Assembly (NCBI GenBank): GCA_020059465.1
Contig: JAGVBZ010000025.1
Span: forward strand, 2,913-66,912
Length of the DNA: 64,000 bases
DNA from: Brevinematales bacterium
Lineage (GTDB): Bacteria; Spirochaetota; Brevinematia; Brevinematales; GWF1-51-8
Reading direction: 5' to 3'
Shown here: positions 7,982 through 37,345 of the stretch, piece by piece
How the letters are laid out: every line of letters starts with the position of its first letter
Numbering within the stretch: position 1 is the first letter of the stretch
Made by a program: the position numbers and the translations under genes
The notes under the pieces: generated by a model
Told to the model about the DNA's origin: nothing
Database searches by the model: none
Seen by the model: only the letters and a program-made list of their open reading frames with translations

Positions 7982-8143
7982 CTTTATCTCCGTGAGAGAT
8001 TATACAAAACATCGCCTCGTTTCGCAACTTCTTCTCATGAACAATAATACTCCCGTTAGATTTTACCAGATTTTATCAATCCTTTGACATTTTATTTTTT
8101 AATAATATACTATTTCAGGGATAAAACATGTAGGAGAAGGGAA

Positions 8144-17855: not shown

Positions 17856-18872
17856 CTACTGAATTTCGAGCTTGCCCTTCAGATTGCCGTTTTTATAGAG
17901 AAGCTGCAGAATAGTGATAATTTCATCGGTGCTTGCCCCTAGCTTGTTCAGCCCGTCCGCGAGTTCCGCGACAGTCGCGCTGGATTTCATCACCTTAACG
18001 GTTTCGCTGGCATTCTGTCCGCCTGAGGAACCGCCCCAGCTTGCCGCGCCGCCCCCGACCTGCACCTTCGTCCCCTTGAACGATACCGCCGCCTCGGTAA
18101 TCATTACGTTCCCGCCCGAAACAATTACTCCCTGCTTCGCGTCGATCAATACCCTCGGCTCCTGATCGATATCCACCGACATTTTATTCAGTTCGAAAAT
18201 GAAGTCGTATATTTCCATCCCCGCGGGAATTTTCATCCGTATCTTGTAATTCTGCACTTTAGTAATCGCATCGGGGTACTTTTTCTGAATCGTTTCTTTG
18301 ACCTTACTGACCACGCCCATACCAAGCTTTTCGTTGACATAGATTGTCAACTGCCCGTTGGTATCGGTGATCTGGTGAAAAATCTCCTCCTGCACAATCC
18401 CGCCGAGAGGGACGATTCCGGTGACGCTCTTGGAGCCGTTCTCGACCATCAGCCTGCCCTGCGCGATCGCATATATCTGGTTGTCCCCGCCCAGCAGCGG
18501 CGTGATAATCAGTTCTCCGCCTTCCAGCGACTTCGCGTCGAAAACCGACGCCACACTCACATCGACATGACTCCCTATGGGGGCGAACGGGGGAAGCTGC
18601 GCGCTGACCAGCACGATTGCGGAGTTCTTCGGCTTCAGGAGCATGGGGTCGACATAAAACCCGAAATTATTCGCGATCATCGATAGGACTTCCTTTGTCT
18701 GCGACCCGGTCGTACTGTCGCCTGTCCCCTTCAGCCCGACCACAATACCGTAACCGAGGACAGGGTTGACCTGCATCCCTTCTATAGAGATAATATTTTT
18801 TAACGGTACGCTTTCCGCGAAAAGCCCCGCAGCGATAAAAACAAACAGTCCTGTTATGAATAAACCGCGCAT
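17856..18872 (-). CDS. flgI: Flagellar P-ring protein
   Basis: 338 aa with a signal peptide, VVGLKGTGDS, ITEAAVSF and a C-terminal LNKLGASTDEIITILQLLYKNGNLKGKLEI. Confidence 0.93.
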   Translation of the reverse strand: MRGLFITGLFVFIAAGLFAESVPLKNIISIEGMQVNPVLGYGIVVGLKGTGDSTTGSQTKEVLSMIANNFGFYVDPMLLKPKNSAIVLVSAQLPPFAPIGSHVDVSVASVFDAKSLEGGELIITPLLGGDNQIYAIAQGRLMVENGSKSVTGIVPLGGIVQEEIFHQITDTNGQLTIYVNEKLGMGVVSKVKETIQKKYPDAITKVQNYKIRMKIPAGMEIYDFIFELNKMSVDIDQEPRVLIDAKQGVIVSGGNVMITEAAVSFKGTKVQVGGGAASWGGSSGGQNASETVKVMKSSATVAELADGLNKLGASTDEIITILQLLYKNGNLKGKLEIQ

Positions 18873-22436: not shown

Positions 22437-22465
22437 TTGAATTCTTTAGGAAAAGAAGGTATAAT
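22437..22465 (+). promoter_or_regulatory. Sigma70-type promoter of the surface-protein locus
   Basis: TTGAAT (22437-22442), 17 nt, TATAAT (22460-22465), leaving a leader of about 115 nt before the TTG start at 22587. Confidence 0.55.
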
Positions 22466-22586
22466 TCTTTTTGGGGTGTAATTTTATATCATTTAATAAC
22501 CATTCGTATCCATACAATATTTTTGCGCTTTTTGTATATGAAAAAAGCTAAGTTTTTATCGTACTTGTTTTGAAAGCGGGGGATTT

Positions 22587-25500
22587 TTGCAGTTAAGAAA
22601 GTTACTATTAGCTTTCTTTGTTGTAACCGGAACTGTGTCTTTAGCTTCTGCGGTCTGTATGAAAGGGGCGTACAATTCATGGACAAGCGTGAATTTTACC
22701 ACCACATACTCGCCGCCCGGGTATTGCCGGAACGTGATAACCGGGGTATCGCAGGGAAACACATTTATCGTCGGCGCGGGCATCAACGACGACTACACTA
22801 CTAAGTACTGCGGCGGTTATTGGGTTCCGGGTTCGGCCAATATGAACGCGGTATGGAGCCTGCCCGTCGGCGGCGCAGACGCGGCTTTCGATGGAGCGAA
22901 TTATTCACAGGTAAAAACTTATATCATTTTCGTATCGAGCACCGTCGCAAACGGCAACTTCGGTATCATGACCGTTTCCGGCAATCCAATCAATATTTCC
23001 GCAGTATCCGCGGGAACAGTTTACCCGCAATCCAATACTATAGTCAATCTCACCCTCTCCGGCGCGAAATGCGCGGAGGAAATCGTCTATATCCGTTACA
23101 GTACCAATAACTGGACGTCCTCGGCGTTCGTTCAGGCGACGGGCGGCGGTACCGCCTATACAGCCGTCGTACCCGGAATGCCCGGCGGTACTATTGTCAG
23201 GTACTACGCGCTGACCACATCGGCGAGTTCGGGAAACCTCGCGGCGAATCCCGACCTTCTCGCTATCAGCGTTAATAACAATAGCGGCGCGAACTATTCC
23301 TTTACTGTCCCGAAGACGACATGGCATACCGTTAAAATCGACGGGATAAACGATTTTTACACCAACGAGTGTTTCCCGACCACATCCGCAGGGTCGGGGT
23401 ATACCAACTGGATCACATGGGACAACAGCTATCTCTATATCGGATATAAGGGCGCGGATATCGCAAACGACCCCTTGGGGGCGGGAGTCCTCGTAATCTA
23501 TATTTCCACCAATACCAACACCGGGTCAGCGTACGGGGTATTGTATAATACGCAGAAACCCGTTCTGCCGTTCCGCGCGGATTACGTGTTCAATTTCGTC
23601 AACGATTACACATGGAACAGCGCGGTATGGAACGGTACCGCGTGGAACTGGAACTCGCCGTTCACCGTAATCACCGGCACCGACCTGAACCGGAACAGTA
23701 CCTATCTGGAATTCCGTATCAGCAAGTCCGACCTGAAGAATCCCGCAAATCTCGATATCTATCTTCAATTCGTGAAGAAAACCGTGGGTTTCGAATGGAC
23801 ACACGGCGCGGTGCCGTACAATACGCTGACCGACGGGTATAAAAGCAACCCGTCAAATTATATCTCCTTCAAGACGAATATCTGGAAGATCAGCAAACAG
23901 CCGTACCAATCCGCCTATAAAACTTTCGACCCCATTCCCCCGTACCAGAATATCCTGCGGTATCCCGTCAATAACCAGACGGTCTATTCCAACTACTCCC
24001 TGACAATGACCAATACCGCGCAGGATAAGATCGGGATATATAAAGTCGAATTTTACACCAATTACAACGGATTATACGGCACGGTCTATGTGACGAATTA
24101 CAACAGCAATTATACCAAAACTATTCCTCCGAACATCCTCAAACCCGGAACGAATCATTTCTACACGATCGCCTATGATACCCGGAATAAACTCTACTCC
24201 GCGACCAATACGGTAGTCGTCAAGGTGAATTCGCCGCCCCCCAAACCGGTGCTGACATTCCCGGTCAACGGCGATATGAACTTCTATCTCCTCAAGCCCC
24301 GGTTCAAATGGTATATAGGCGCGGATCCCGACGGGCAGGTAATATCCAATTACCAGATCATCGTCTCGATAAATTCGACACTGACCCCGCAGTACTTCAA
24401 TCATACCTTTGTCTCGACGTCGTCGAATTTCCTGACAATCTTCACCAATTACCTGCAGAATAACACTACTTATTACTGGTCGGTACGCGCAAACGACGGC
24501 ATCATATGGGGGCCGTGGTCGACTACCAATTATTTCCGGGTGAACCCCGCTTATATCAAGCTCGACGGCAGCCTGTCCGAATGGAACACATCCATCGGCG
24601 GAGTGAACACCGATTTCATCAGCAACGGGCAATGGATATGGAACGACAAGACGAACGACGCGGTGGTATCCGGCGACGCGCTGCCCTACGACCATCTCGA
24701 TATGCTGAAATTCGGGGTCACCGCCGATAAAAACTGTCTGTTCTTCATGTTCACCGTACCCGACCTGTCGGACGATGTGACCTACGACTCCCCACGCCCC
24801 TACATCAGCGTCTCGATCGACACGAACCTTGTAACCGGATCCGGGAATAACCAGACGGTCGAGAGCGAAGTGGGCACTCCCGCCGCCGCGAGATGGGAGC
24901 TTGAAATCATCGCGAATGTCGATGGAACCGGTTACTATACCGTTTCCGGGAGCACGACTAACTTTCACGAGTGCGGCGAAAACTGGATCACCCATTCGGC
25001 CCATCCCGGCCTGGGCGAGATCGCCATCCCGTGGGATGAGATGGGATTTAAATCGATCCCGCAGAAGCTGAATATTATCGTAAACACCGGGCGCGTAGTG
25101 GACGGCCTCGGGAATTACCATCTCCAGCCGATTTCCGGCGCGCCAAACTTCCTCGACTGTGTTTCCACCAACGATCCCGCGTCGGCGGAGTTTTCCGACG
25201 GGGTCAACAATATTTACATGAATATCTGCTTCAATACCAACGGATGCATCATCGAGACATCGTTCAAGGTCACCTGCCCGACCAACGCCCTCGCGGGAAT
25301 GCCGTTCCCGGTGGTGGTCAAAGCCCTTGCGCCGCTCGGCGGAAAGGTTTACGACTTCAACCGCGCGATCGTCTCCGCATTGTTATTCGGCGGTACGGCC
25401 TATGTCGTATCGAACACGGCATGGAAACAGGGCGTTTCCACAAACTATGTCGTCATCAATTACCTCGGTTCCAATAAAATCGTCATCCGCGACCAGCAGT

Positions 25501-27959
25501 TTACGAATATCGGCGGGATCAGCGGATGGATCGTGATCTACCGTCCCGACGTAGTCATAAACGAATTGATGTTCGACCCTGTCGGCGCGAATACCGACGG
25601 GCAATGGGTCGAACTGTTCAACCGCGAGAACAAGTCCGTATACCTGAACGGATGGGCTATTCACGATTACGACGTCGCCTTCCCGATGTATAAAATTACG
25701 AACGTAATAATTCTGCCGTCCTCGAATTATATCGTGCTGTGGGACGGGGCGGGTGTGAACGACCTCGATTTCTCCGACGGGCGCGGTATCCTCTACGGGC
25801 AATGGGGCGCGGCGCAGCTTTCGACCGCGCAGGACGAGGTCGGACTTTACTGCTCTTCTACGATGGAAAACCAGTACACCCTGATGGACTTTGTCGCTTA
25901 CGGGGCGGACGCGGGTACCGACGACGACCTTGCTGTGACGGCGGGCATCTGGACATCAGGCGCGTTCGCGTCGACGGCGCTCTACACCGAGGGGTCGTCC
26001 CTCGTACTTCTTCCCGACGGCGACGATCATAATCTCGCCTCCGACTGGACGGTCGACCATACCCCCACCCCGAAATGGGGCAATAAATATATCATCGCGC
26101 AGAATATTTCCAATACCGTGCAGACCAACGGCGCGTATGCCGGGACGATTATGCTGGCGTTCCAAATCCGGCTCCCCGACCCCGAGAACGACGCGGCCGC
26201 ATCGGGCGACCGTCTATCCAATATCGTCATCTGCCTCGGCGGGAATATCACGACCAACGGTATCCTCGAAGCCAAGCTCTGGAACGGCAACGGCGCGGGA
26301 CAGTTCAACTACGGATACCGGAATAACTCGGCGACCAACAACCTGCTGATGGGAACCGGGACTTATTCCAACGCGGTCAACGGATACGTATTCAAGAACC
26401 TCGCGAACAATCTCATCGCCGATTCGGCGGCGGGCGGATATATGACGGTCTATTTCTCGCTGAAGCTCGCGACCAATATCACCGCAGGGCAGACGGTCAA
26501 ACCCTTCATCCTGCCGAACAGTATCAGGATGCAGTCCGTGCCGGGCGAGTTTATCGGCCCGAAGGACAAAGGACTGACGAATTCGCAGTCGATGCCGATA
26601 AAACCCGGGTACTTTATCGTGTACGAGTACAGCGACGCGAAATGGGCGGGCGTAAACAGCTATCTCTACGACTTTATCGAAATATATAATAATTCCGCGG
26701 CCGGAATTACCCCGTCGGGATGGAATATATCGACCGCGCAGGGGAACGACAACCTCGCCTTCTTCCGGGGGTCGACGTTCGCGGCGGGTAATATGCTCCT
26801 GATATGCGGCGGGATAACCACAGCGCAGACGTTCACCAACTTCTACGCGGAGAATCCCTCGTCGCCGATCATGGCTCCCGCCTCCGGCACGAAGATCGCC
26901 CTGAACGGACTTGCCGCCGCGGATACGCCGTTTATCCTGCGCGAGAACACCACCATAATCGCAATCATTAATTATACGAACAATATTACAACCGCGAGCA
27001 ATACGGTCGAAATGATCAACCCGTGGGGAGGCCAGACCGCCGCGAATTATCAGGCGTCGTCGTATATCCATGGGACGCCGGGGTATCTCAACGGATTCCG
27101 GGCGATCGAAATGAGTCTCGCGAACGTATCCAACTACAGTCTCGATATCAATACGACAAACAACCTCGTGCTCGATTTCTCTATCCCGAACAATAACGGC
27201 GCGGCGGATACGCTGCAGATGATCACGATTAAGAATAACGCGACCGCGGTCAATACGGACGTGTCGTTCAAACTGTGGAAAGAGGGCGCGAGCGCGGGAT
27301 ACAACGGCGACGAGACGCTGGTCGGGAGCCTCACCTATCAGGGTTCCGGCCGATGGCAATGGAGCGGATCGACATCCATCCCGAATACGGGCGCGGTCAA
27401 GAAATGGAAATTCTATATTACAGCGGATGTGGCTCCGACGGTTCTGGACGGGAACATGGTCAAGCTCGGTGTGGAGGGGCTATCCCCGCCGGCGCCCGGC
27501 CCGTATACCGATAGTTTCACGATGGGCATCAAAGTTGCGAGCTGGAACGACGGCCCTGTCGACGGCGCTGTCTCAAATATATCGTACCAGATATGCGGCG
27601 TACCGTTCCTGACCCTTTCCAAAACGGTGCAGAGCGTTCAGGTAATGAATACCAACCTCGCACTGCCGGGGTCGCTCATCCTGTACAAGCTCGAGTATTC
27701 CAGCCTATCGAACGGACGGGCGTATCAGGTCGCGCTGTACGATAAAATTCCCGCTAACACCAAGTACTACACCAACTACGCGGGAACCGCCGCGGGATGG
27801 ACGGTGCAGTTCTCGCAGTTGGCAAATCCCGACCAGAGCTATAACTCATCCGACTATAACACAAATCCCACGAACGCGCTCTGGATACGCTGGAAAAAAG
27901 GGCTAGTATACCCGAACGAGGATAACCGGACGCTTTATTTAGGAGTAACATTAAACTAA
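22587..27959 (+). CDS. Giant secreted surface protein (1790 aa) with two lamin-tail-like domains, an FN3-like module and a C-terminal DUF11-type domain
   Basis: TTG start and a signal peptide ending ASA-V. LTD signatures are VVINELMFDPVGANTDGQWVELFNRENKSVYLNGWAI (about 25545) and DFIEIYNNSAAGITPSGWNIS (about 26670). The FN3-like segment is PPPKPVLTFPVNG...YYWSVRANDG. The DUF11-like end is LTLSKTV...PGSLILYKLEYSSLSNGRAYQVALYDKIPANTKY. Confidence 0.85.
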   Translation: MQLRKLLLAFFVVTGTVSLASAVCMKGAYNSWTSVNFTTTYSPPGYCRNVITGVSQGNTFIVGAGINDDYTTKYCGGYWVPGSANMNAVWSLPVGGADAAFDGANYSQVKTYIIFVSSTVANGNFGIMTVSGNPINISAVSAGTVYPQSNTIVNLTLSGAKCAEEIVYIRYSTNNWTSSAFVQATGGGTAYTAVVPGMPGGTIVRYYALTTSASSGNLAANPDLLAISVNNNSGANYSFTVPKTTWHTVKIDGINDFYTNECFPTTSAGSGYTNWITWDNSYLYIGYKGADIANDPLGAGVLVIYISTNTNTGSAYGVLYNTQKPVLPFRADYVFNFVNDYTWNSAVWNGTAWNWNSPFTVITGTDLNRNSTYLEFRISKSDLKNPANLDIYLQFVKKTVGFEWTHGAVPYNTLTDGYKSNPSNYISFKTNIWKISKQPYQSAYKTFDPIPPYQNILRYPVNNQTVYSNYSLTMTNTAQDKIGIYKVEFYTNYNGLYGTVYVTNYNSNYTKTIPPNILKPGTNHFYTIAYDTRNKLYSATNTVVVKVNSPPPKPVLTFPVNGDMNFYLLKPRFKWYIGADPDGQVISNYQIIVSINSTLTPQYFNHTFVSTSSNFLTIFTNYLQNNTTYYWSVRANDGIIWGPWSTTNYFRVNPAYIKLDGSLSEWNTSIGGVNTDFISNGQWIWNDKTNDAVVSGDALPYDHLDMLKFGVTADKNCLFFMFTVPDLSDDVTYDSPRPYISVSIDTNLVTGSGNNQTVESEVGTPAAARWELEIIANVDGTGYYTVSGSTTNFHECGENWITHSAHPGLGEIAIPWDEMGFKSIPQKLNIIVNTGRVVDGLGNYHLQPISGAPNFLDCVSTNDPASAEFSDGVNNIYMNICFNTNGCIIETSFKVTCPTNALAGMPFPVVVKALAPLGGKVYDFNRAIVSALLFGGTAYVVSNTAWKQGVSTNYVVINYLGSNKIVIRDQQFTNIGGISGWIVIYRPDVVINELMFDPVGANTDGQWVELFNRENKSVYLNGWAIHDYDVAFPMYKITNVIILPSSNYIVLWDGAGVNDLDFSDGRGILYGQWGAAQLSTAQDEVGLYCSSTMENQYTLMDFVAYGADAGTDDDLAVTAGIWTSGAFASTALYTEGSSLVLLPDGDDHNLASDWTVDHTPTPKWGNKYIIAQNISNTVQTNGAYAGTIMLAFQIRLPDPENDAAASGDRLSNIVICLGGNITTNGILEAKLWNGNGAGQFNYGYRNNSATNNLLMGTGTYSNAVNGYVFKNLANNLIADSAAGGYMTVYFSLKLATNITAGQTVKPFILPNSIRMQSVPGEFIGPKDKGLTNSQSMPIKPGYFIVYEYSDAKWAGVNSYLYDFIEIYNNSAAGITPSGWNISTAQGNDNLAFFRGSTFAAGNMLLICGGITTAQTFTNFYAENPSSPIMAPASGTKIALNGLAAADTPFILRENTTIIAIINYTNNITTASNTVEMINPWGGQTAANYQASSYIHGTPGYLNGFRAIEMSLANVSNYSLDINTTNNLVLDFSIPNNNGAADTLQMITIKNNATAVNTDVSFKLWKEGASAGYNGDETLVGSLTYQGSGRWQWSGSTSIPNTGAVKKWKFYITADVAPTVLDGNMVKLGVEGLSPPAPGPYTDSFTMGIKVASWNDGPVDGAVSNISYQICGVPFLTLSKTVQSVQVMNTNLALPGSLILYKLEYSSLSNGRAYQVALYDKIPANTKYYTNYAGTAAGWTVQFSQLANPDQSYNSSDYNTNPTNALWIRWKKGLVYPNEDNRTLYLGVTLN

Positions 27960-27970
27960 GGATGGAATAA

Positions 27971-29446
27971 ATGAAATTACTCAGGACATGCATGCTGATG
28001 ATTTTACCCGCGCTCATTTTTGTCAACGCTTACGGCGCGATCAAAATCCAGTCCGTGATGCTGAATCAGCCCGATGCAAAAAATCTAATCGACGGCGATA
28101 AAAATACGCTTACAAAATTCAAGCCCGGCGAGAATATCCTCACGCTCCAGATGGGCGCGTTGAAGGATATCGGAGCGATCAAAATATTTTTACAGAAGGT
28201 AACCGAGTTTAAGAATTTCAAACTTTTTATATCCGACGATTTTATTTCCTGGTCAACTGTCGCGGAGTATAAGAATATCAAAAGCGATCTGATCGACGTC
28301 AAGGCTGAAAACATTTCCGCGATGTTCGTGAAAATCGTACTCGAGTCCGGGTCGGAATACGCCGTCCGGGAAATCGAGTGCTATGAGAAAGCGTCGGGGA
28401 AGAACGAAATAACCGATGTGAAAGTTTCCGGGGTTTCAGAAAGTTCCGCGGTCATCACATGGAAAACGAAGATCAAATCGCAGGACCATTTCCATTACCA
28501 GAAAAAGTATAACGGGAGTAAAGAGACGCTGATCGAGGTGAATTATATCACCAATCATTCGGTATCCCTGCAGGGGCTTGTGAAGGGCTCGGACTATAAC
28601 TTCGTGATAGTGAGCGAATCCCCCGACGGCACCCGTATCGAGAGCAAACAGTACGGATTCAAGACCCTCGGCATCCCTCTGCCGGAGTTCTGGCAGTTGA
28701 CCGCGAAAAATATTACCCCGTTCACCGCGAAGCTCTTCTATGAGTCGAATGTACCCGTCTCGTACGAGATCTTTTTCGGTCAGTCCCCCGACGGGATGAA
28801 AAAGCTTAAGGAAGACAAAGGACTTGCGGCATCGCGGGATATCGATATCACTGGGTTACAGCAGGAGACGGCCTATTATTATCAGCTTTACCTGAGGGAC
28901 GCGCAGGGCAACGTCATCAAAACCCCGCCGCTGAGCTTTGTCACCCCGCCGGACAATATCGCGCTCGGTAAAAAAGTATGGGGCACGTTCAATTACGTCG
29001 ATCCGACTATCAAGGAACTCGGCTACGGCGAGACGTCGATCGACAAACTCACCGACGGGAGCCTGAACTACTTCGGCGGGATGGCGATCTCGTTCAACGC
29101 GGACAATTCCGACCAGTACGCGGTGATCGACCTCGGCAGTATATCCGCGATCAAACGGCTGGATATCTACTGGTGGGCGTTATCGTTCAGTAAGGACTAC
29201 CGGATCGACGTGAGTATCGACGGGAAGTCGTGGAAAACGCTGAAAGAGCATCTGGACGCATCGCAGGGCTCGGATATGCGCTCCCCGATGGGCGACTATA
29301 TCGTCCTGCACTCCGTCCCGCTTGACACGGCCGCGCGGTTTGTCAGAGTATATATCACGGCGAAAGCGCCCCGGGGAACACGGGAGAAAAAATGGCAGCC
29401 GTGGAAGAACCTGTTTATATGTGAGATTGCGGTAATTGCAAAATAA
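27971..29446 (+). CDS. Secreted protein: discoidin (F5/8 type C) domain, two FN3 modules, second discoidin domain
   Basis: Signal peptide. The first discoidin-like domain ends VREIECYE. FN3-like segments include SAVITWKTKIKSQ and ETAYYYQLYLRDAQGN. The second discoidin-like domain includes IDLGSISAIKRLDIYWW and ends ICEIAVIAK. Confidence 0.8.
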   Translation: MKLLRTCMLMILPALIFVNAYGAIKIQSVMLNQPDAKNLIDGDKNTLTKFKPGENILTLQMGALKDIGAIKIFLQKVTEFKNFKLFISDDFISWSTVAEYKNIKSDLIDVKAENISAMFVKIVLESGSEYAVREIECYEKASGKNEITDVKVSGVSESSAVITWKTKIKSQDHFHYQKKYNGSKETLIEVNYITNHSVSLQGLVKGSDYNFVIVSESPDGTRIESKQYGFKTLGIPLPEFWQLTAKNITPFTAKLFYESNVPVSYEIFFGQSPDGMKKLKEDKGLAASRDIDITGLQQETAYYYQLYLRDAQGNVIKTPPLSFVTPPDNIALGKKVWGTFNYVDPTIKELGYGETSIDKLTDGSLNYFGGMAISFNADNSDQYAVIDLGSISAIKRLDIYWWALSFSKDYRIDVSIDGKSWKTLKEHLDASQGSDMRSPMGDYIVLHSVPLDTAARFVRVYITAKAPRGTREKKWQPWKNLFICEIAVIAK

Positions 29447-29479
29447 AACCGCCTCTAAGGTGCGGTAAAGAATATTTCA

Positions 29480-29574
29480 GTCATTGCGAGGCATGAAGTG
29501 ACGAAGCAGTCGAATGAATTACTGAAAACGATAAGGATTGCTTCACGAATCCTGACGGATTCATTCGCAATGAC
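29480..29574. repeat. ~95-nt palindromic element built from two inverted copies of the GTCATTGCGA...GAAGCA(G/A)TC repeat
   Basis: The + strand copy is 29480-29511 (GTCATTGCGAGGCATGAAGTGACGAAGCAGTC). The inverted copy is 29535-29574, whose reverse complement is GTCATTGCGAATGAATCCGTCAGGATTCGTGAAGCAATCC. Confidence 0.75.
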
Positions 29575-29630
29575 AAAGAATGGCATGAGATTAAGGTAAC
29601 AGCAAAATAAACTGTTTTTAGGAGGATAGT

Positions 29631-30686
29631 ATGAAAATCAGAAGAAGCCTGGTATCGCTAGCCCTGCTGACGGGCGCGATCACTGCTGTGCTGGTGATGT
29701 CGCCGTTCGGCGGACGCAGCGCGGAAGCCGCGCCTACCCCGGCGGGCACACCGATCACCAACACCGCCACCATGACATGGGGCGGAGGTATGTCCACCAA
29801 CGTGGCTACCACTATGCCGCGCGTCGGTACCAACTATGGGGGAACATGGTCGGGTAACAACAGTACGAATGTCGCACCCGGTACGCATTCGTACAACAAG
29901 ACCTCGTTCGTAAACGACGGAAACCTTGCGGTCAACTTTCAGTTCAGCGCGGGTGAATTTCATTCCGCCGCGCAGTGGGGTTCATGGTTCTATGAATACA
30001 CCAATACCGCCACTACCGCTCACGGTTTGCCTCTTACGGTAAGCATGTCGCCTCAGGCTGTGGTCACCACCCTTTGGTTCCATGTGTATGTGCCGGGCGC
30101 CGAAATCGACTCGTCCTACGCCCAGTTCAAATGTGTAGCCACCGGGCCGAACACCACCGCTATTGCCACGAACTATACGGGCTACAACGCTCTGCGCTAC
30201 GGCGGAAATATGGGGAAATGGGCCGCCGGCTTCGGTAAGGTTATCCTGACGAACACTACGGGTTCGGGCAACACGAACTGGAGAGTAACCGTACAGGCGG
30301 CCGTCATGGCGCTGACCAAGTATTTGATCATTTCGAACGCCGGGCCTTTCGCCACGGATACCACACGCCCGTTCCCCGGCGGCATCCTGATCTGGCGCCT
30401 GAATTATTCCAACGGCGGATCGGTTCCCGCGACAAGCGTTAAGATTGTCGACGTGTTCAACACGAACTTTGTGACGCTGAATATTAACAGTCTGAAGTCC
30501 AACACCTGGGGTTCGCCCTATCCGTGGGCCGCGGCCGCGTTTACAACCAACGCCGTAGGAGACCCGGGTGCGTCCACCAACGGCGCCAGCGTGATCTTCG
30601 CCCCGTTCACCACCACTCCGCTTAACGGCAGTACGGTCGGGGCCGGCGGTAAAGGCGCGTTTTACTACGTGAACTACGTGAAGTAA
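29631..30686 (+). CDS. Secreted DUF11-like protein (possible abundant structural subunit)
   Basis: AGGAGG at 29620-25, 5 nt before the ATG. The signal peptide ends AEA-A and is followed by PTPAGTPITNTATMTW. Composition is T/N/G/A-rich and visibly GC-richer than neighbours. Confidence 0.65.
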   Translation: MKIRRSLVSLALLTGAITAVLVMSPFGGRSAEAAPTPAGTPITNTATMTWGGGMSTNVATTMPRVGTNYGGTWSGNNSTNVAPGTHSYNKTSFVNDGNLAVNFQFSAGEFHSAAQWGSWFYEYTNTATTAHGLPLTVSMSPQAVVTTLWFHVYVPGAEIDSSYAQFKCVATGPNTTAIATNYTGYNALRYGGNMGKWAAGFGKVILTNTTGSGNTNWRVTVQAAVMALTKYLIISNAGPFATDTTRPFPGGILIWRLNYSNGGSVPATSVKIVDVFNTNFVTLNINSLKSNTWGSPYPWAAAAFTTNAVGDPGASTNGASVIFAPFTTTPLNGSTVGAGGKGAFYYVNYVK

Positions 30687-30779
30687 CACTGTTTAACGGA
30701 TTACGATATTAAGGCTTGACAAAATAGATGGGGCCGCCCCGAAGGCGGGCGGTTCCAGACTATTTAATGAGGTTGAAAT

Positions 30780-31784
30780 ATGAAATTTTTAGGGCTTATA
30801 CTATTTTTTCTCCCTGTGTTATGCTGGAGCAGTGTTCTATTAAAATATCAGGACGGGTGGTCTGCCGTATTGCGGCTTGACAATATGAAATCGTTATCCA
30901 AGCCCGTCGTATTCATCATCTATCATAAATCCATGACCAATTCCGCAATGATGATCGGCGATTCGCCGGAACATACGGTTCCGCTGACCCTGCCCGCCGG
31001 GGAGTGCGCCTATCAGGTGAAGGACGCGAATAAAAAAATTATCGAGCAGGGAAAACTATCCCTGAGCCTCCCGGTCGACGTAAAAATAAAATCCGTAGAA
31101 CCGAAAAAGGTCACTTTCAGCCTCTCGTCCGCGCAGGACATATTTGTCGAATGCTATCTGACGACCAATAATACGATCGCGCACTACCAGAGAATCGAGT
31201 TGAAAAAGCAGGGCGAGGCCGTGTTCTCCGGGTTGGCGTCCGGGACGGAATTTAAGGCCGAATTCAAGGTCAAGGATACCGCCTTCTCGAAATCGTTCAC
31301 TACCCCGCTTTTCAACGCCGCCCTCCATAAGCCGGTCTCCGGTACATTCAACCGTCTCCCGGAAAGCAAATTTGTCGACGATTCCACCCCCGCTATCACG
31401 AGGGTCAACGACGGGCTAGTGGAATGGTATAAGGGGATGGCGGTCAGCACGGAAGTGGGAATGGAAGCCCAGTATGTGATTATTAACCTTCTCGGCACGC
31501 ATCACCTGAAGAGCATGAAGGTCACATGGAACGCCAATTACTACCCGTTATCCTATTATATCATGTACAGCATGGACGGGGTGAAATGGGATTATTTCGA
31601 GCGGAAGGAGAAGGATTATCAGGCTTCCGCCGCGCCGGATAATTCTCCCATCAGGGTGGATGAATTCCCGGTATCGTTCGACGCGGGTTATATCGGGGTA
31701 TGGATCGATAAAAACGCCGCAATCCACGCACATCAGGATTATAAGAATTACTTACAATTAATGGAGATAGAGGCCTATGAATAG
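30780..31784 (+). CDS. Secreted protein with C-terminal discoidin (F5/8 type C) domain
   Basis: Signal peptide. The C-terminal half reads NAALHKPVSGTF...VIINLLGTHHLKSMKVTWN...LMEIEAYE. Confidence 0.7.
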   Translation: MKFLGLILFFLPVLCWSSVLLKYQDGWSAVLRLDNMKSLSKPVVFIIYHKSMTNSAMMIGDSPEHTVPLTLPAGECAYQVKDANKKIIEQGKLSLSLPVDVKIKSVEPKKVTFSLSSAQDIFVECYLTTNNTIAHYQRIELKKQGEAVFSGLASGTEFKAEFKVKDTAFSKSFTTPLFNAALHKPVSGTFNRLPESKFVDDSTPAITRVNDGLVEWYKGMAVSTEVGMEAQYVIINLLGTHHLKSMKVTWNANYYPLSYYIMYSMDGVKWDYFERKEKDYQASAAPDNSPIRVDEFPVSFDAGYIGVWIDKNAAIHAHQDYKNYLQLMEIEAYE

Positions 31785-33009
31785 GCTCGCGCTGATACTT
31801 CTGCTTGTCGTCTGCACCTGCACGCTGTCTCACGGGGCCGCCGGAACCCCTTCGGGAACTGTCCTCTCCAACATCTCCCGGATGGACTTCTATTACTGGG
31901 GTATCCCTTTCACGAATTATATTATGGATACGTCGCTGACAATGGGCAGTATCTACGGTATAGACGGAATCTATTCCCTCCCCGCGTATAACGGCTACCC
32001 GAATTATTCCGTGCGTATCGACCTGTATATGACCAACCTCGGGAACGACGCGGATAACGACGCCGATTTATTCGTCTCATCGTTCTCGAACTCCCCCGGC
32101 TATACGGCATCGCCGTGGAGTTACCATTTCGAGGTATTGTCGGTCAATGTCGGAACGAATTACTCGATCCCGTTCGCGCTTTTCGGGGTGGGCGCGGTAT
32201 TCCACGCGGTACTTGTGGTGGATATCCCCGCCGACGCCCCGACCAACTCGATGGGGTATTTCACTATCGGCGGTACGACGCTCAGCAACTCGAACCATGT
32301 GGCGGGAACATACACCGGATACAACGGGCTACCGTACGGCGGTAAGACACAGGCCGGAACGATGTTCACCGTGCGGGTGATCCCGCCGAACCGGATTGTC
32401 GACCTCTACGCGAGCGACGCGATCGATACGATCCGCCTTTTCGACGGGACTCTGTACCTGCGGAAGATCGAGAATTTTATATACGCACTGCTGAGGAATA
32501 CACCTGTCCGCGCGACCACGGTCAACCTGTGGTACGCGGTCGACAGTCTCCCGGACGGCCCGGGCGGGAATCCGGACGACGCGAGCGTACCGATGATCGA
32601 AATCTCGCAGAACCTGTATCAGGCGAAGATTCCCGAGAGCGCGGTCAAGTCCGGCAACTTCACGGCGTTTTTCCTCGAGATCGACGGGCTGAACTATATC
32701 ACGAACTTCACTTATCTATTGAAGGGCGTATACGAACAGGGTTATGAGACGATTGTGATGAATAATATTATCCCGCCGGGCTCGGCATATATCAAACTCC
32801 CCGACAAGACGCTCGGCAAACCGGGCAAGATTACCGTATACTCGATAGCGGGCGATATCGTACGCCACATATTCGACGGCGATATCGGGAATACGTTGTA
32901 CGGATGGGACGGTACCGACGATCAGGGCTTCATGGCGCAGACAGGGATATACTTCATCGTCGTCGATATCGAGAATCTGAAAGAAGTACGTAAAATTATG
33001 GTGAAATAG
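31777..33009 (+). CDS. Secreted protein with FlgD-Ig / T9SS-type C-terminal domain
   Basis: Overlaps the upstream gene by 8 nt. The signal peptide is followed by AAGTPSGTVLSNISRM. The C-terminus ITVYSIAGDIVRHIFDG...GWDGTDDQGFMAQTGIYFIVVDIENLKEVRKIMVK matches the FlgD_ig/CTD pattern. Confidence 0.7.
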   Translation: MNRLALILLLVVCTCTLSHGAAGTPSGTVLSNISRMDFYYWGIPFTNYIMDTSLTMGSIYGIDGIYSLPAYNGYPNYSVRIDLYMTNLGNDADNDADLFVSSFSNSPGYTASPWSYHFEVLSVNVGTNYSIPFALFGVGAVFHAVLVVDIPADAPTNSMGYFTIGGTTLSNSNHVAGTYTGYNGLPYGGKTQAGTMFTVRVIPPNRIVDLYASDAIDTIRLFDGTLYLRKIENFIYALLRNTPVRATTVNLWYAVDSLPDGPGGNPDDASVPMIEISQNLYQAKIPESAVKSGNFTAFFLEIDGLNYITNFTYLLKGVYEQGYETIVMNNIIPPGSAYIKLPDKTLGKPGKITVYSIAGDIVRHIFDGDIGNTLYGWDGTDDQGFMAQTGIYFIVVDIENLKEVRKIMVK

Positions 33010-33018
33010 GAGAACGGT

Positions 33019-34170
33019 TTGAACCGGAACCTGAGACCGCGAGCCGCCGGATTAATCCTGAGCCTGACATTTGTCTTCATTACTCTATCATATCCGCTGA
33101 CATCGGAATCGGACTTCCTGAAGATTCCGAAGAGCGCCCGCGCTATCGGCCTCGGCGACAGCTATACGTCCATTATCGGCGACACCACCGCGATCGAGTA
33201 CAATCCCGCCGCGATGAATACGATCGATAATCTCGCGCTGTCGTTCATGTACCAGTCGTGGATCGATAACGCTTATGCGTGCTATTTCTCCGGCGCGATG
33301 AAGATATACGACTTCGTGATCGGTACGAGCCTGTACTATGTGGATTACGGCGGGTTCAGCCATTACGACTCCTACGGGATGCTCCTGTCGGAGTATCAGC
33401 CCCACGATATCTGCTGGAAGGCCGCGATATCGATGGACGGCGGACTGCTGTTCGATTTCCTGACCGGGTTCTCGGTCGGTATAGGCGCGGGAGTGATCGG
33501 CAGGGGATTGGCGGACTTCGGGACATGGGGACTCACCGTCGATCTGGGGATCAATTACACGTTCACCCTCCAGCGGCTGGGATTCAAGTATGACGGCGAA
33601 TTATTCAGGATGCCGATCAACGCCGGATTCGCTATCCAGAACATCGGGTTTACCGGGGATTCGACCGCGCCCCTCAAGGGGACGCTCGGCATATCCGCCG
33701 GACTGGCGAAGGGACTGTACCTGTCGATGGATGTCGCGATCGAGTACGGCCGCCCGTTCCTGTATAAAATGGGTATCGAATACACTCTCTTCAATATATT
33801 AATACTGCGTACCGGGTTCAATCTCGGAAGGGACACCGGTAATCTCGCGTTCGGCCTCGGCCTGCGCTATCCGGAGTACTTCAACGACCTCCGGCTGGAT
33901 TACGCATTCTCGTATCTGGATACCCTCGGGAATAACCATAACTTCTCGGTGTATGTCGATTTTCCCGTTTTCGTCGACCATGTATCGCAGTACTATCAGC
34001 AGGGAATCTATCATTATCTTCATGGCGACTATGAGCTTGCGAAGGAGAAATGGCTAAAGGCGCTCGCTATTGATCCCGAAAATAAACTGGTACAGAAGAA
34101 GCTCCACGATCTGGAAAAACTGATGAAGCTCAATCAAATGATCGAGAATGAAAAAGGGATGTCGAAATGA
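33019..34170 (+). CDS. PorV/PorQ-family-like outer-membrane beta-barrel with C-terminal TPR motif
   Basis: TTG start. FLKIPKSARAIGLGDSYTSIIGDTTAIEYNPAAM matches the conserved PorV/PorQ N-terminal motif. Alternating G/aromatic strands follow. The tail YYQQGIYHYLHGDYELAKEKWLKALAIDPEN is a TPR unit. Confidence 0.7.
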   Translation: MNRNLRPRAAGLILSLTFVFITLSYPLTSESDFLKIPKSARAIGLGDSYTSIIGDTTAIEYNPAAMNTIDNLALSFMYQSWIDNAYACYFSGAMKIYDFVIGTSLYYVDYGGFSHYDSYGMLLSEYQPHDICWKAAISMDGGLLFDFLTGFSVGIGAGVIGRGLADFGTWGLTVDLGINYTFTLQRLGFKYDGELFRMPINAGFAIQNIGFTGDSTAPLKGTLGISAGLAKGLYLSMDVAIEYGRPFLYKMGIEYTLFNILILRTGFNLGRDTGNLAFGLGLRYPEYFNDLRLDYAFSYLDTLGNNHNFSVYVDFPVFVDHVSQYYQQGIYHYLHGDYELAKEKWLKALAIDPENKLVQKKLHDLEKLMKLNQMIENEKGMSK

Positions 34171-36428
34171 AAATCCGTTACCTGCTTTCTCTGCTGATAT
34201 TCATTGCGGGACTCGCGTACAGTCAATCCGATCCCGGCGGCTACGACAAGGCTCTCGAATGGTATAACAAGAAGCACTATGTCAAATCGGTCGAAATACT
34301 CAAGGAGTATATGGACAATTTCCCTCTCGACCCCCGCGCGCCCGAACTGCTGGAAAAGATGTATGAGAAGTACACAGAGTTCCAGATCGTCTATCTGCAG
34401 GGCAAGGAATTTTATAATAAAAAACTCTACCTGAAAACGATCGAGGAGTTTTCCAACGCGCTGAAAGTGGGTTTCAGCGATAAACTACAGTTCTACCTGA
34501 CCGAATGTATCCGCACCGTATTCGAGCTTGAGAACGGGTTTGTGCCGAGCACGGTCGCCGAGACCGCCGAGAGCCTGACCATCTCGTGGAATAGCGATCT
34601 CCTGACCAACGCCCGCGTCGTATTCGTGAAAAGCGAAAATATCCCGCTTCTCAATATGATCCATTACCTCAACGAGAACAAGATACCCGTCGCGCGGCTG
34701 GAAAAATATTTCACGCAGGGGAATATATTTAAATCGTTCACGGTGAACGGAACCAGCGTAACCGTCTCGAAAAATCAGCCCGCCGAATCCTTTCTCGTTA
34801 TCGTCTACCCCAAGACCGTGGAGGACGTCCGTTCCCAGCCCATCATCCGCATGGTAGTCACCAAGGAGCCGTCGATCCAGAATAAATTTCTCATGCTCGA
34901 ACCGATCCGCGATATCCCGCTCCTGCCGCTGTATACCAATATCCATATCATCATACCCGGCCAGCCCGAACATACGACCACCAATGTGACCGGTATTCTG
35001 ACGAAATACAGCAACCTGATCATCAGCCTGAATACAAACTCGATAACCAACCTGACTAACGGCAGTCTGACTAACGCCTACCTCAATGCCAGCGGGATTA
35101 AAACCGTTAACGGATGGGGCGCTTTCCCATGGTGGCTGCTGATTATCCTGCTACTGATTATCCTGCTTGTCCTGACGGGTTTAATTCTCCGGGAGAAACG
35201 GCGGCGGGAACTTGCAGGAAAAATCGAACAATGGAAAATGGAGAACGAGTACGATCTCACGGATGACGGCGCGGAGAAGAAATCCCCCGTGTTCAAGAAA
35301 AAGCCTGCGCCGAAAAAGAGCGCCCAACAGTTGAAAAAGCCCCTGCAGCAGGAAAAAAAGCCCGTACAGAAGAAAAGTTCGCCATCCGGAAAGAAATCCG
35401 CACCTGCCAAGCCGAAGCCCAAATCGGGTAACGCCCCGTCGCGCCCGAAGGGGAAGAAACTCCCCGCGGTCATTGTGCTTATTCTCAGCGGGGTAATCGC
35501 CGTATCCGCGCAGGAATTCACCGACGCCCCGGGATGGCGGGATTACGCGCAGAAGTCGCTCGCTCCAGTTGTATGGAATTATTATGTCGAACACGCCGGG
35601 ATTACCAACCTCCCGCAGTCCTACTATGACAACATCGCAAAATTCTACTCGTTTGAGAAAAGCGCACACCTGCCCCAGCATTACCTGAAAACCCTCGATT
35701 TCCTCCGCGAAACCGCGAATTATCTCCGAAATATATCGTCGGTCTATTTCAGGAATTTCGATTACGAGAATTACGCCCTGACATCGTTCATGGTGTATTA
35801 TATCGATAAGGATTATTCGTTTTTCTCGCAGTCCATCTCGGAACTGAAAAAAGCCAAGACGGAAGCGATAGCGGATAAGATATTACAGAAGAGCATCGAG
35901 TTTGAAAAAAAGGGGCTGTACCTCGGCGCAATTGTCCGAATCACCGGATATATGTCGTTATCGGCGAATATACAGCCCGATCTTTTTCAGCGCCTGAACG
36001 ACCTCTACGCGAAGAATAAAAAGGAAATATCGCAGTACGAGTACTTATCCGCGACCGCGCGGATCAATAAAATCCTTTATGACGGCGAAATCCCGGCGGT
36101 AATCAAGGATATCCTCTGTCTGAGGGAAACATTCGAATACGAGGCGCAGTTCGGTCCGTTGGAATCGTTCAGTTTGTTAAGGAAGGATGCGGTCGAATTC
36201 CTGCGTCTGAACTACCGGATTCTGCTTTACAACGACCTGCTCACCGAAGGATATAAATGCTACCTGAACTGTCAGCTTCAGCCCGCGAAGGAATGCTTCG
36301 AACTGGCGTGGCATATCGCCCCGAAGAAGGAATTGCTGCCTTCCATCGGAAGCAATATCGCGATGGTCAAGGGCGCGATGAGCGGAAAGGGAGTGCATAT
36401 CTATATCACCAACGCGCTTATTCCCTGA
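34167..36428 (+). CDS. Bitopic envelope protein: TPR/FN3-like N-half, TM, Lys/Pro-rich loop, second TM, unknown C-half
   Basis: ATGA overlap with the barrel gene, and a signal peptide. TPR-like YDKALEWYNKKHY; LTISWNSD (FN3-like); TM WWLLIILLLIILLVLTGLIL; KKPAPKKSAQQLKKP...PKPKSG; second hydrophobic segment LPAVIVLILSGVIAVSA-QE. Confidence 0.65.
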   Translation: MKIRYLLSLLIFIAGLAYSQSDPGGYDKALEWYNKKHYVKSVEILKEYMDNFPLDPRAPELLEKMYEKYTEFQIVYLQGKEFYNKKLYLKTIEEFSNALKVGFSDKLQFYLTECIRTVFELENGFVPSTVAETAESLTISWNSDLLTNARVVFVKSENIPLLNMIHYLNENKIPVARLEKYFTQGNIFKSFTVNGTSVTVSKNQPAESFLVIVYPKTVEDVRSQPIIRMVVTKEPSIQNKFLMLEPIRDIPLLPLYTNIHIIIPGQPEHTTTNVTGILTKYSNLIISLNTNSITNLTNGSLTNAYLNASGIKTVNGWGAFPWWLLIILLLIILLVLTGLILREKRRRELAGKIEQWKMENEYDLTDDGAEKKSPVFKKKPAPKKSAQQLKKPLQQEKKPVQKKSSPSGKKSAPAKPKPKSGNAPSRPKGKKLPAVIVLILSGVIAVSAQEFTDAPGWRDYAQKSLAPVVWNYYVEHAGITNLPQSYYDNIAKFYSFEKSAHLPQHYLKTLDFLRETANYLRNISSVYFRNFDYENYALTSFMVYYIDKDYSFFSQSISELKKAKTEAIADKILQKSIEFEKKGLYLGAIVRITGYMSLSANIQPDLFQRLNDLYAKNKKEISQYEYLSATARINKILYDGEIPAVIKDILCLRETFEYEAQFGPLESFSLLRKDAVEFLRLNYRILLYNDLLTEGYKCYLNCQLQPAKECFELAWHIAPKKELLPSIGSNIAMVKGAMSGKGVHIYITNALIP

Positions 36429-36738: not shown

Positions 36739-37302
36739 ATGAAAAGACACGTTATTGCAGTATTAGCACTGGTTGGGTTAGTTTTAGCAGGGTGTGGTTC
36801 ACAGGATAAGGCCGCTGAAAAGAGCGGCGGTGCTGTCGAAGGGAAGGCCGGGAATATAGCCTCCGTTAAAAAGGGCGGAACGCAAACTTATGCGAACATT
36901 TCGATAACTGTTCCAGCTGATTGGGAAGTCAGCGAAGAAGAGAACCTTGTTCGTGTTTACAGCCCCGGCGATACAGTTCTTCTTCAGATCGAGGAATTTT
37001 CCTCAGAGTCATGGAAAGATTATGTAGCAAAGGCTGAGAAAAAAATGACCGAATACCTGAAGAACGATTTGGGCTCCGAATACAAAGTCAGTAAGAAAGG
37101 CGAAGAGAAGATAAACGGTATCAATACCTATTACTTCAATTATTCCTATGAAGATCCCGACTACGGCAAGGCGATATGCTATACTTATGCTGTAGAAACC
37201 GGCAAAGGGATAACCATGCTCACATTCGATGTACTCGAAGAAGGCCTCAACGATTATAAGAAAGCTATGGGCGACATCAAAGCAAGTTTAGCGGTAAAAT
37301 AA
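36739..37302 (+). CDS. DcrB/PsbP-fold-like (DUF1795-type) lipoprotein, single-domain paralog
   Basis: Perfect lipobox LAGC. Domain motifs are ISITVPADWEV, YSPGD, INGINTYYF, YGKAICYTYAVETGKGITMLTFDVLEEG and DIKASL. The architecture parallels E. coli DcrB by hand comparison. Confidence 0.65.
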   Translation: MKRHVIAVLALVGLVLAGCGSQDKAAEKSGGAVEGKAGNIASVKKGGTQTYANISITVPADWEVSEEENLVRVYSPGDTVLLQIEEFSSESWKDYVAKAEKKMTEYLKNDLGSEYKVSKKGEEKINGINTYYFNYSYEDPDYGKAICYTYAVETGKGITMLTFDVLEEGLNDYKKAMGDIKASLAVK

Positions 37303-37345
37303 GAATAATAATCAAGCATAACATTTCATAACCCGGGAGGTTGTG

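Follow-up and report, generated by a model that had tools for sequence, protein, structure and literature searches.

The locus examined here occupies positions 22437-36428 of a 64,000-nucleotide (nt) stretch of contig JAGVBZ010000025.1 from the metagenome-assembled genome of a Brevinematales bacterium; this whole stretch is called the window below. It comprises seven open reading frames (ORFs) on the + strand, which we designate O1 to O7: O1 (22587-27959; 1790 residues, TTG start), O2 (27971-29446; 491 residues), O3 (29631-30686; 351 residues), O4 (30780-31784; 334 residues), O5 (31777-33009; 410 residues), O6 (33019-34170; 383 residues, TTG start) and O7 (34167-36428; 753 residues). All of our results are computational. 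They center on O3, whose sequence suggests that a domain of the DUF11/CLIPPER family has been divided between the N- and C-termini of separate secreted subunits, and on the conserved set O1-O6, which may encode a chain of such subunits tethered to an outer-membrane (OM) barrel.

An earlier interpretation made from the letters and translated ORFs (the sequence-only reading) had described seven same-strand ORFs with junctions of +11, +184, +93, -8, +9 and -4 nt, and both positions and junctions were reproduced exactly. Its near-consensus promoter upstream of O1 is also present, as a sigma-70-like candidate, TTGAAT-17-TATAAT (22437-22465, + strand), that agrees with the consensus at 10 of 12 positions and lies in the 236-nt intergenic gap 5′ of O1; however, promoter-like matches are common in the region (30 found against 16 ± 3.5 expected), so this site is best regarded as suggestive. 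A hydrophobic, signal-peptide-like segment begins all seven products, the signal peptides end in AXA-type sites without lipoboxes, and searches of Pfam and NCBIfam returned no enzyme-family match for any of the seven. The content of the cassette is secreted, non-enzymatic and lectin- or adhesin-like, much as had been read from the translations. Most of the individual domain calls were borne out as well, namely the lamin-tail (LTD) domains of O1, the discoidin domains of O2 and O4, the FlgD_ig-like end of O5 and the PorV/PorQ-like O6, while the DUF11-type end of O1, the relationship between O3 and O5, and the TPR/FN3 assignment of O7 required amendment. Rfam and tRNA scans of the window gave no matches.

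The organizing principle that the sequence-only reading missed is the apparent splitting of the DUF11/CLIPPER domain between subunit termini. O3 consists of a signal peptide, an N-terminal donor strand (residues 36-52, TPAGTPITNTATMTWGG; 29736-29786, + strand) at the mature N-terminus, an N-domain (residues 55-215) and a strand-less DUF11/CLIPPER-like acceptor domain (residues 218-351; 30282-30683, + strand). The donor strand carries an invariant Asn, N44 (29760-29762), and two acceptor residues, K230 (30318-30320) and D274 (30450-30452), are invariant in the alignment of the O3 family. The motif (G)T-x-AGT-x-(I/L)-T-N-x-A-x-V is present in 55 of 58 family members, where it directly adjoins the cleavage site of the signal peptide, and the C-terminus of the family has the pattern ...F/Y-x-F/Y-x-V-x-(I/L)-(N/D/K). 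When O3 was used in an exhaustive profile search, the matches fell into three groups: 11 close cluster representatives; several dozen distant proteins of 320-370 residues with the same two-domain layout (counted as 50%-identity clusters); and many giant DUF11-repeat proteins, which match only O3 residues ~240-300. A separate scan of the genome collection with O3 found just two close relatives. The C-domains of the 320-370-residue relatives reach 27-30 bits against Pfam DUF11 (cut-off 24.6) and 35-45 bits against TIGR01451 (cut-off 24), and these DUF11-scoring proteins are linked to O3 by profile E-values of 1e-13 to 1e-23. DUF11 has been renamed CLIPPER, and its crystal structure is a CnaA-like sandwich with an intramolecular Lys-Asn isopeptide bond and a catalytic Asp (PMC12617251).

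Neither O1 nor O3 contains a contiguous, complete DUF11 domain, as the C-domains of both stop at the penultimate strand, and the donor strand at the N-terminus in the O3 family aligns with the final strand of canonical DUF11 repeats. We then considered chimeras in which a C-domain is joined to the N-terminal strand of the same protein. For P0100, this raised the Pfam DUF11 score from 33.4 bits (C-domain alone) to 36.9 bits and lengthened the matched span of the model from positions 10-75 to 11-100; the P0064 chimera reached 38 bits with a model span of 8-100, compared with 27.4 bits for the full-length protein. The equivalent chimeras of O3 and O1 from the window showed no gain with Pfam, both being too diverged, and the split-domain argument consequently rests on the wider O3 family and on orthologs. 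A hidden Markov model (HMM) built from 51 chimeras was run against 81 giant DUF11 proteins, and its alignments reached the final model position in 442 of 917 repeats, compared with 10 of 909 when a different 18-residue segment was appended and 42 of 917 when the strand was shuffled. Among 149 near-full-length canonical repeats, the positions aligned with O3 K230, D274 and N44 are occupied by K in 141, D in 147 and N in all 149, and the K/D/N triad is complete in 54 of 59 full-length O3-like proteins. As judged from these alignments, the three conserved positions are most probably the counterparts of CLIPPER's isopeptide triad; direct mapping onto the CLIPPER structure 9IFR was not informative, since neither P0100 nor the chimera profile matched it. 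Taken together, these comparisons lead us to read O3 as a DUF11 repeat that stops short by one strand, the absent strand having been relocated to the N-terminus. Searches of PDB sequences with the O3 and O5 family profiles returned nothing meaningful, and matches to picornavirus VP3 (E 0.01) were judged to be due to chance.

O1 and O5 appear to hold complementary parts of the same arrangement. The C-terminal domain of O1 (residues 1661-1790; 27567-27956, + strand) is a DUF11/CLIPPER-like acceptor that stops at the penultimate strand (...RTLYLGVTLN), and alignment with the O3 C-domain identifies K1679 (27621-27623) and D1719 (27741-27743) as the candidate Lys and Asp. The K and D/E positions are kept in all O1 orthologs, with E replacing D in some, and no N-terminal donor motif is found in the O1 family. 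The proposed DUF11-type end of O1 holds for short orthologs, which score 28.6 and 24.7 bits against the Pfam cut-off of 24.6, but could be detected only through them, as the C-domain of O1 in the window has no match. O5 is built from a signal peptide, a donor strand (residues 24-40) with an invariant Asn, N32 (31870-31872, + strand), directly after the signal peptide, a domain D1 (residues 60-200) paralogous to the O3 N-domain, an Ig-like domain D2 (residues 205-316) and a C-terminal domain (CTD) resembling those known from type IX secretion systems (T9SS). No acceptor domain is present in the O5 family. O3 and O5 had been described as two DUF11-like paralogs; what they have in common is the N-terminal strand and N-domain, a region of ~170 residues (pairwise E 2e-4, profile E ~1e-11), and O5 lacks the DUF11 body. 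An AlphaFold2 model of O5, with a mean predicted local distance difference test score (pLDDT) of 71, contains three confident beta-sandwiches (60-200, 205-316 and 335-410), and leaves the conserved residues 19-58 disordered, which is what would be anticipated of a strand lacking a partner in its own chain. The pattern of sequence elements thus amounts to a division of labor in which O1 is acceptor-only, O3 both donor and acceptor, and O5 donor-only.

The gene-order comparison suggested for this locus was carried out, and it indicates that O1-O6 form a conserved functional module. Neither O3 nor O6 of the window has an exact counterpart among recorded sequences; close homologs of the window proteins belong to Brevinematales (Spirochaetota), near 'Spirochaetes bacterium GWF1_49_6'. 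All seven genes occur in the close relatives L001, L004 and L015; this synteny proves little, because the flanks are common to these loci and the window. More telling are four distant loci, L009 (on a 2-Mb contig), L012 (GCA_020052515.1), L016 and L017, where the order O1-O2-O3-O4-O5-O6 is identical at 35-50% identity despite unrelated flanks that include tRNA synthetases, a transposase and polysaccharide genes. A further locus, L011, contains O3-O7 followed by a SpoIIE gene. Strict collinearity of O1-O6 in at least six lineages, including distant genomes with unrelated surroundings, argues that the O1-O6 cassette is a real, selected module. O7 is found in L001, L004, L008, L014, L015 and L011 and is absent 3′ of O6 in L009, L012 and L016, and both O7 and the giant size of O1 are lineage-specific traits of the copy in the window.

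Within the conserved set, O5 and O6 form a putative anchor. The C-terminal beta-sandwich of O5 (residues 335-410; 32779-33006, + strand) is all-beta, modeled at pLDDT 77-89, and resembles the T9SS type A CTD and FlgD_ig; its final residues (...LKEVRKIMVK) are strongly conserved. TIGR04183 matches five of six O5-family members at E≤0.01 (best E 8.6e-5), all just under the cut-off. O6 is composed of a predicted OM barrel (residues 31-315) and a C-terminal TPR helix pair (residues 324-356). Its assignment as a PorV/PorQ-like barrel was upheld by NF033709, with 99.6 bits against a cut-off of 90 and 99.3 bits for the L009 ortholog, and the O6-family profile matches the solved Flavobacterium johnsoniae PorV structure 6h3i_F (E 2.4e-25, profile positions 1-245). 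It fails the PorV and PorQ equivalog models NF033710 and NF033711, with 28 versus 250 bits and 69.5 versus 220 bits. By the CTD profile, each cassette has exactly one CTD, always in the gene directly upstream of O6, and O6 invariably lies directly 3′ of O5, in agreement with the idea of a dedicated barrel. The barrel part of the proposed 'OM shuttle-like barrel' therefore stands, although its role is better read as that of a PorQ/PorP-type anchor for the lone CTD protein, O5, than as that of a shuttle. A similar adjacency is seen elsewhere: in the far more distant locus L020, the gene for an O5-like CTD protein directly precedes that for an O6-like barrel, and another barrel of the O6 type comes after a 994-residue fn3 protein whose C-terminus is CTD-like by eye and was missed by the CTD profile. 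A contig from Elusimicrobia has a barrel-TPR gene in the vicinity of one for a 1755-residue protein with a CTD-like end.

The remaining members differ in how constant they are. O1 of the window has a signal peptide, an N-extension (residues 1-243, CBM53-like), a conserved core (244-555), an insertion (556-1660) with two LTD stretches (E 3.4e-21, Pfam) and Ig-like domains, and the acceptor domain. Its orthologs in L009, L012 and L016 have only 435-440 residues and match O1 residues 244-555 plus 1661-1790; the N-extension and the LTD/Ig insertion of ~1100 residues are lineage-specific additions, and a giant fibre-like protein cannot be taken as a conserved feature of the locus. All O1 orthologs have a Cys close to where the signal peptide ends, which raised the possibility of a lipoprotein; we discounted it, since the Cys is followed by good AXA-type cleavage sites. 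O2 has the Pfam architecture F5/8C - fn3 - fn3-like - F5/8C (F5_F8_type_C, E 1.5e-20; fn3, E 1e-9), and O4 carries an F5/8C discoidin domain at its C-terminus. The two are paralogous over a common discoidin region and may serve as lectin-like accessories or assembly factors. O7 had been taken for a bitopic TPR/FN3 protein; instead it has two internal hydrophobic segments and no significant TPR or FN3 match, with a predicted order of signal peptide, periplasmic domain, transmembrane segment (323-341), 86-residue Lys/Pro-rich loop, second transmembrane segment (432-450) and C-terminal helical domain. This protein, which lies outside the conserved core, might act as a scaffold in the envelope. 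The O6 proteins of the lineages without O7 (L009:10001-11557, L012:10001-11518 and L016:7305-8840) have an additional C-terminal AMPK1_CBM/CBM48 module of the glycogen-binding type, and that of L012 also matches TPR models weakly. It is unusual for an OM barrel to bear a carbohydrate-binding module, presumably periplasmic, and its presence coincides with the absence of O7.

Features of the spacers bear on the relative output of the subunits. A GC-rich hairpin with no U-tract (30722-30765, + strand) directly follows the O3 stop codon in the 93-nt O3-O4 spacer; this region folds at -36.5 kcal/mol over 106 nt, with a z-score of -5.65, and none of 200 shuffled sequences was as stable. Hairpins 3′ of O3 occur in five of eight loci (the window, L001, L012, L016 and L011), and none is seen in L009 or L005. 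Three one-sided substitutions in the L001 hairpin keep pairing, and the hairpins of L012, L016 and L011 are non-homologous. The element is a candidate for mRNA stabilization or partial termination that would raise O3 output. By analogy with major-pilin genes, we infer that O3 may be made in excess as the major subunit. The small subunit predicted to be abundant does look to be O3, given the stable hairpin behind it in the window and in four further loci. Structure beyond that of shuffled sequence is likewise found in the 184-nt O2-O3 spacer (29445-29590; -41.8 kcal/mol, z -3.5), which might contain a site of processing or some internal regulatory element ahead of the O3 ribosome-binding site, AGGAGG, at ~29620. 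At L012, the O3-O4 spacer (7509-7640) forms a G/C-rich nested hairpin of -81 kcal/mol over 132 nt (z -6.8), which is beyond the need of a simple terminator and may be a repeat element.

We propose a model in which the N-terminal strand of each subunit would insert into the C-terminal domain of the subunit ahead, generating a head-to-tail chain with O1 at the tip, (O3)n as the shaft and O5 as the base. Each joint could be locked by a spontaneous Lys-Asn isopeptide bond, in the manner of a natural SpyTag/SpyCatcher pair, and the adhesive end would be supplied by the variable modules (CBM53-like, Ig-like and LTD) in the N-terminal part of O1. At the opposite end, the O5 CTD would be held by the O6 barrel, much as PorQ retains PorZ and PorP-like barrels retain type B CTD proteins, tethering the fibre to the OM. 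We consider the chances that this arrangement of tip, shaft, base and anchor, possibly covalent, is correct to be about even. Trans complementation, polymerization, covalent bonding, CTD-barrel binding and surface location are all elements that we infer.

Several observations weigh against the model. In the window itself, the O3 C-domain scores 14.3 bits and the O1 C-domain has no match on Pfam DUF11, reflecting their divergence. The AlphaFold2 model of O3 is unusable (pLDDT 31, from a 5-sequence alignment), and the fold search with O5 gave only generic tandem-Ig matches. The O5 CTD lies under the curated cut-offs, with 21.1 versus 23 bits for TIGR04183 (E 2e-4) and 22.8 versus 27 bits for FlgD_ig (E 9e-5). 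The cassette encodes no OM translocon, chaperone or usher, which makes surface exposure an assumption and leaves the description 'self-contained' unsupported. O2 and O4, conserved in all cassettes, have no place in the fibre. Finally, complementation in cis within O3, which would amount to a circular permutation, is topologically possible.

This last point underlies the alternative that survives best, in which the O3 strand folds onto its own C-domain as an intramolecular isopeptide staple, O3 is monomeric, and only O1 and O5 pair in trans, forming a heterodimer on O6 with no polymer. A single O3 chain does hold all three triad residues, the known CLIPPER bonds are intramolecular (PMC12617251), and an acceptor-only O1 and a donor-only O5 are accounted for here too. 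Evidence in the other direction comes from fused, single-chain relatives (P0055, P0060, P0101, P0121, P0172, P0052, P0058 and P0106), which are arranged as C-domain, strand, N-domain, C-domain. In the four that score with the short strand model (P0055, P0060, P0101 and P0121), the strand starts 3-5 residues after the preceding C-domain, and each downstream C-domain has its own following strand, save the last. Because the strand directly follows a C-domain in these proteins, it is expected to complete the domain that precedes it, and a fused chain cut at the strand boundary rather than at the domain boundary would yield O3-type subunits whose N-terminal strand must complete the C-domain of another molecule. 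The residue pattern of L017 points to trans pairing as well. Its O3 (P0048), like P0051, has lost K and D jointly and retained N, and the O1 ortholog of L017 keeps K and D. The hairpin 3′ of O3, in suggesting a stoichiometric excess, also weighs against a monomeric O3. We therefore think self-complementation unlikely; head-to-tail complementation in trans is more likely on the sequence evidence, and a covalent bond at each joint is plausible. As a separate observation, the terminal C-domain is strand-less in five of the eight fused proteins (P0052, P0055, P0101, P0121 and P0172), like that of O1, and such proteins may themselves take a strand from another protein.

A second possibility is that the locus is an ordinary cluster of T9SS cargo, with a canonical T9SS elsewhere in the genome, O5 as a type A CTD cargo protein, O6 as a PorV/PorQ paralog and the other genes encoding co-regulated secreted proteins. 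Membership of O6 in the PorV/PorQ family and the matches of the O5 family to TIGR04183 are what this explanation would predict. However, each cargo protein needs its own CTD, and only one of the six secreted proteins has one; the equivalog scores of O6 given above are far under their cut-offs; and the literature confines T9SS to the FCB superphylum, with PorV/PorQ-family barrels known from spirochetes that are without T9SS. Consistent with the sequence-only reading, no T9SS core gene (SprA/Sov, PorK/L/M/N, PorU or PorT) was found among the 37 window ORFs scanned (7 from the cassette and 30 others). We regard this explanation as improbable.

Much the same can be said, with slightly greater doubt, of a periplasmic chain tethered to the inner face of the OM through O6 and to the inner membrane through O7. 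The absence of an encoded OM translocon, the presence of Sec-type signal peptides alone, and the predicted periplasmic location of the O6 TPR/CBM extension and of both large O7 domains all fit such a structure. On the other hand, extracellular proteins are the typical setting of DUF11/CLIPPER, discoidin, LTD and CTD modules, three lineages dispense with O7, and in T9SS, PorV binds CTDs at the outer face; it is hard to see this arrangement as anything but very unlikely. Least probable of all is a nutrient-capture locus in which O6 would import a hydrophobic or glycan-derived substrate in the manner of FadL and O2, O4 and the CBM53-like part of O1 would bind and deliver it, for although there are analogies with surface glycan-binding proteins encoded beside OM transporters, PorV lies within the FadL superfamily, Treponema FadL-like proteins have the same barrel-plus-TPR architecture, a spirochetal PorV/PorQ-family barrel already noted in the literature (a Brachyspira case) was interpreted as FadL-like, and O6 orthologs carry AMPK1_CBM/CBM48 modules, no cassette has a hydrolase, inner-membrane transporter or regulator, the O6 profile matches PorV and no FadL structure at E≤1, and the donor/acceptor split domain and invariant CTD-barrel adjacency would be left unexplained.

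Two other loci show related gene sets. The L020 locus (L020:8384-20339) holds a variant, looser cassette without an O1 homolog, in the order O2-like, O3-like, O2/O4-like, a second O3-like, O5-like with CTD, O6-like barrel with a faint TPR match, the 994-residue fn3 protein and a second O6-like barrel without TPR, so that there are two candidate CTD-protein/barrel pairs. In another organism, L021:2788-7762 encodes a barrel-less trio with the same logic and gene order as O1/O3/O5: a 199-residue protein whose sole domain is a strand-less DUF11-like C-domain, a 367-residue O3-like protein (P0148) with donor strand and acceptor domain, and a 947-residue protein with a donor-like N-terminal strand, AGTVITHTQATI, in which His replaces Asn, followed by Big_6/Big_13 domains.

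Several further ORFs of the window deserve mention. The two + strand ORFs after O7 (36739-37302 and 37343-40402) were excluded as members, being syntenic only in the close relatives L001 and L004; they encode a 187-residue protein with a faint lipoprotein LytA-like N-terminus and a 1019-residue protein without a family match. On the - strand, 46427-47437 encodes a 336-residue protein that matches the multi-beta-barrel surface protein of the Leptospira OmpL47 type (domain model 156.8 bits versus a cut-off of 40; equivalog 153 versus 250), so that a surface-protein family of Leptospira type is represented in Brevinematales. Two antisense ORFs inside O1 (24072-25121 and 26214-27359, - strand; 349 and 381 residues) are rich in Arg, Gly, Asp and Val and look like by-products of O1 codon composition. 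Surrounding loci include genes for an ankyrin-repeat protein (8084-8944, +), an adenylate/guanylate-cyclase-domain protein (10276-11985, +), a Bat-like VWA+TPR protein (14704-16407, +) and the flagellar P-ring protein FlgI (17856-18872, -), none of which is linked to the cassette in distant genomes.

If the head-to-tail model is correct, the cassette would represent a route by which a diderm bacterium builds a pilus-like structure without known assembly machines, from subunits that form their own covalent joints, a property so far known only from archaeal threads and engineered SpyTag/SpyCatcher pairs. DUF11/CLIPPER would no longer be solely an intrachain stabilizer, and spirochetal PorV/PorQ-family barrels would acquire a function as anchors of CTD proteins outside the FCB superphylum, which bears on the interpretation of 'FadL-like' OM proteins in pathogenic spirochetes. 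The dozens of O3-like clusters at 50% identity and the other contexts seen in L020 and L021 would indicate that the principle is widespread and could supply orthogonal SpyTag/SpyCatcher-like pairs from nature; tag/catcher pairs such as O5 to O3 and O3 to O1 could serve as protein-ligation tools. More tentatively, and with less confidence than we place in the order of the subunits, we suggest that the cassette may define an unrecognized class of bacterial surface fibre, in which Sec-exported subunits would insert an N-terminal 'tag' strand into a strand-less CLIPPER 'catcher', the joints would be sealed by spontaneous isopeptide bonds without sortase, chaperone or usher, and the chain would end with a CTD in a PorV-like barrel, all in a phylum lacking T9SS.

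The suspicion that no named system matches the locus was confirmed in so far as we found none in the literature, nor any description of a split DUF11/CLIPPER domain, of the O1-O6 cassette or of a spirochetal CTD/PorV-like pair. The parts are of known kinds (CLIPPER, discoidin, LTD, T9SS-like CTD and PorV-family barrel). Judged by its encoded products, the cassette lacks what defines chaperone-usher, sortase and type V pili and the canonical T9SS component set. No PapD-like chaperone or usher barrel (Pfam, NCBIfam) and no P_gingi_FimA or Mfa family member (Pfam) was matched among the cassette proteins, the C-termini of the products read lack an LPXTG-transmembrane-charged tail, and there was no sortase-family match (Pfam, NCBIfam). 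Chaperone-usher and Bacteroidia type V pili nevertheless share with our model an incomplete Ig-like fold completed by the strand of a neighbor and a division into tip, shaft and base. They differ in depending on features that are missing here, PapD-like chaperone and usher in one case and FimA/Mfa fold, lipoprotein precursors and a protease-processing signal in the other, and both are without the candidate covalent lock that we propose.

Filaments of archaea offer a further comparison. Sulfolobus threads combine N-terminal donor-strand complementation with inter-subunit isopeptide bonds (PMC9715654), and Haloarcula Tat-fimbriae (tafi) are donor-strand filaments whose tip, adapter, core and anchor subunits are encoded together (PMC11821415). 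The N-terminal donor-strand logic proposed for the cassette is similar; there is no sequence relationship, and the archaeal filaments belong to cells with a single membrane, use other folds and secretion routes and have no OM barrel anchor. With the CLIPPER/DUF11 fibrillar adhesins (PMC12617251; PDB 9IFR), the resemblance extends to the beta-sandwich family, the Lys/Asp/Asn triad, the setting of a cell-surface adhesin and, sometimes, a Por_Secre_tail. Their domains are complete, tandem and cross-linked within a chain, whereas here the Asn strand has apparently been moved to the mature N-terminus of small, separate subunits, implying an interchain join.

For the barrel, two comparisons are instructive. 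The Treponema pallidum FadL-like (UPF0164) proteins TP0548, TP0859 and TP0865 have a barrel-plus-TPR architecture and are interpreted as importers (PMC8407342). They and O6 share a spirochetal barrel of the 14-strand type (predicted for O6) followed by a periplasmic alpha-helical TPR extension, and several O6 homologs have weak UPF0164 matches; unlike O6, the T. pallidum proteins are not reported beside CTD-bearing or DUF11-like genes, and their similarity to O6 is marginal (E 0.058). In T9SS, an uncleaved CTD is held by a barrel in the pairs PorZ-PorQ and PorU-PorV of Porphyromonas and in type B CTD-PorP/SprF-like pairs (PMC9143113). The O5/O6 pair departs from these in occurring in a spirochete with no core genes found nearby, in the non-orthology of O6 to PorV and PorQ, in the periplasmic TPR or CBM48 extension of O6 and in having a single, sub-threshold CTD protein per cassette. 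The common ground is a protein with a C-terminal Ig-like sorting domain encoded beside, and presumably held by, an OM barrel of the FadL superfamily, and by this analogy the CTD-barrel pairs of T9SS appear to be the closest functional parallels of O5 and O6.

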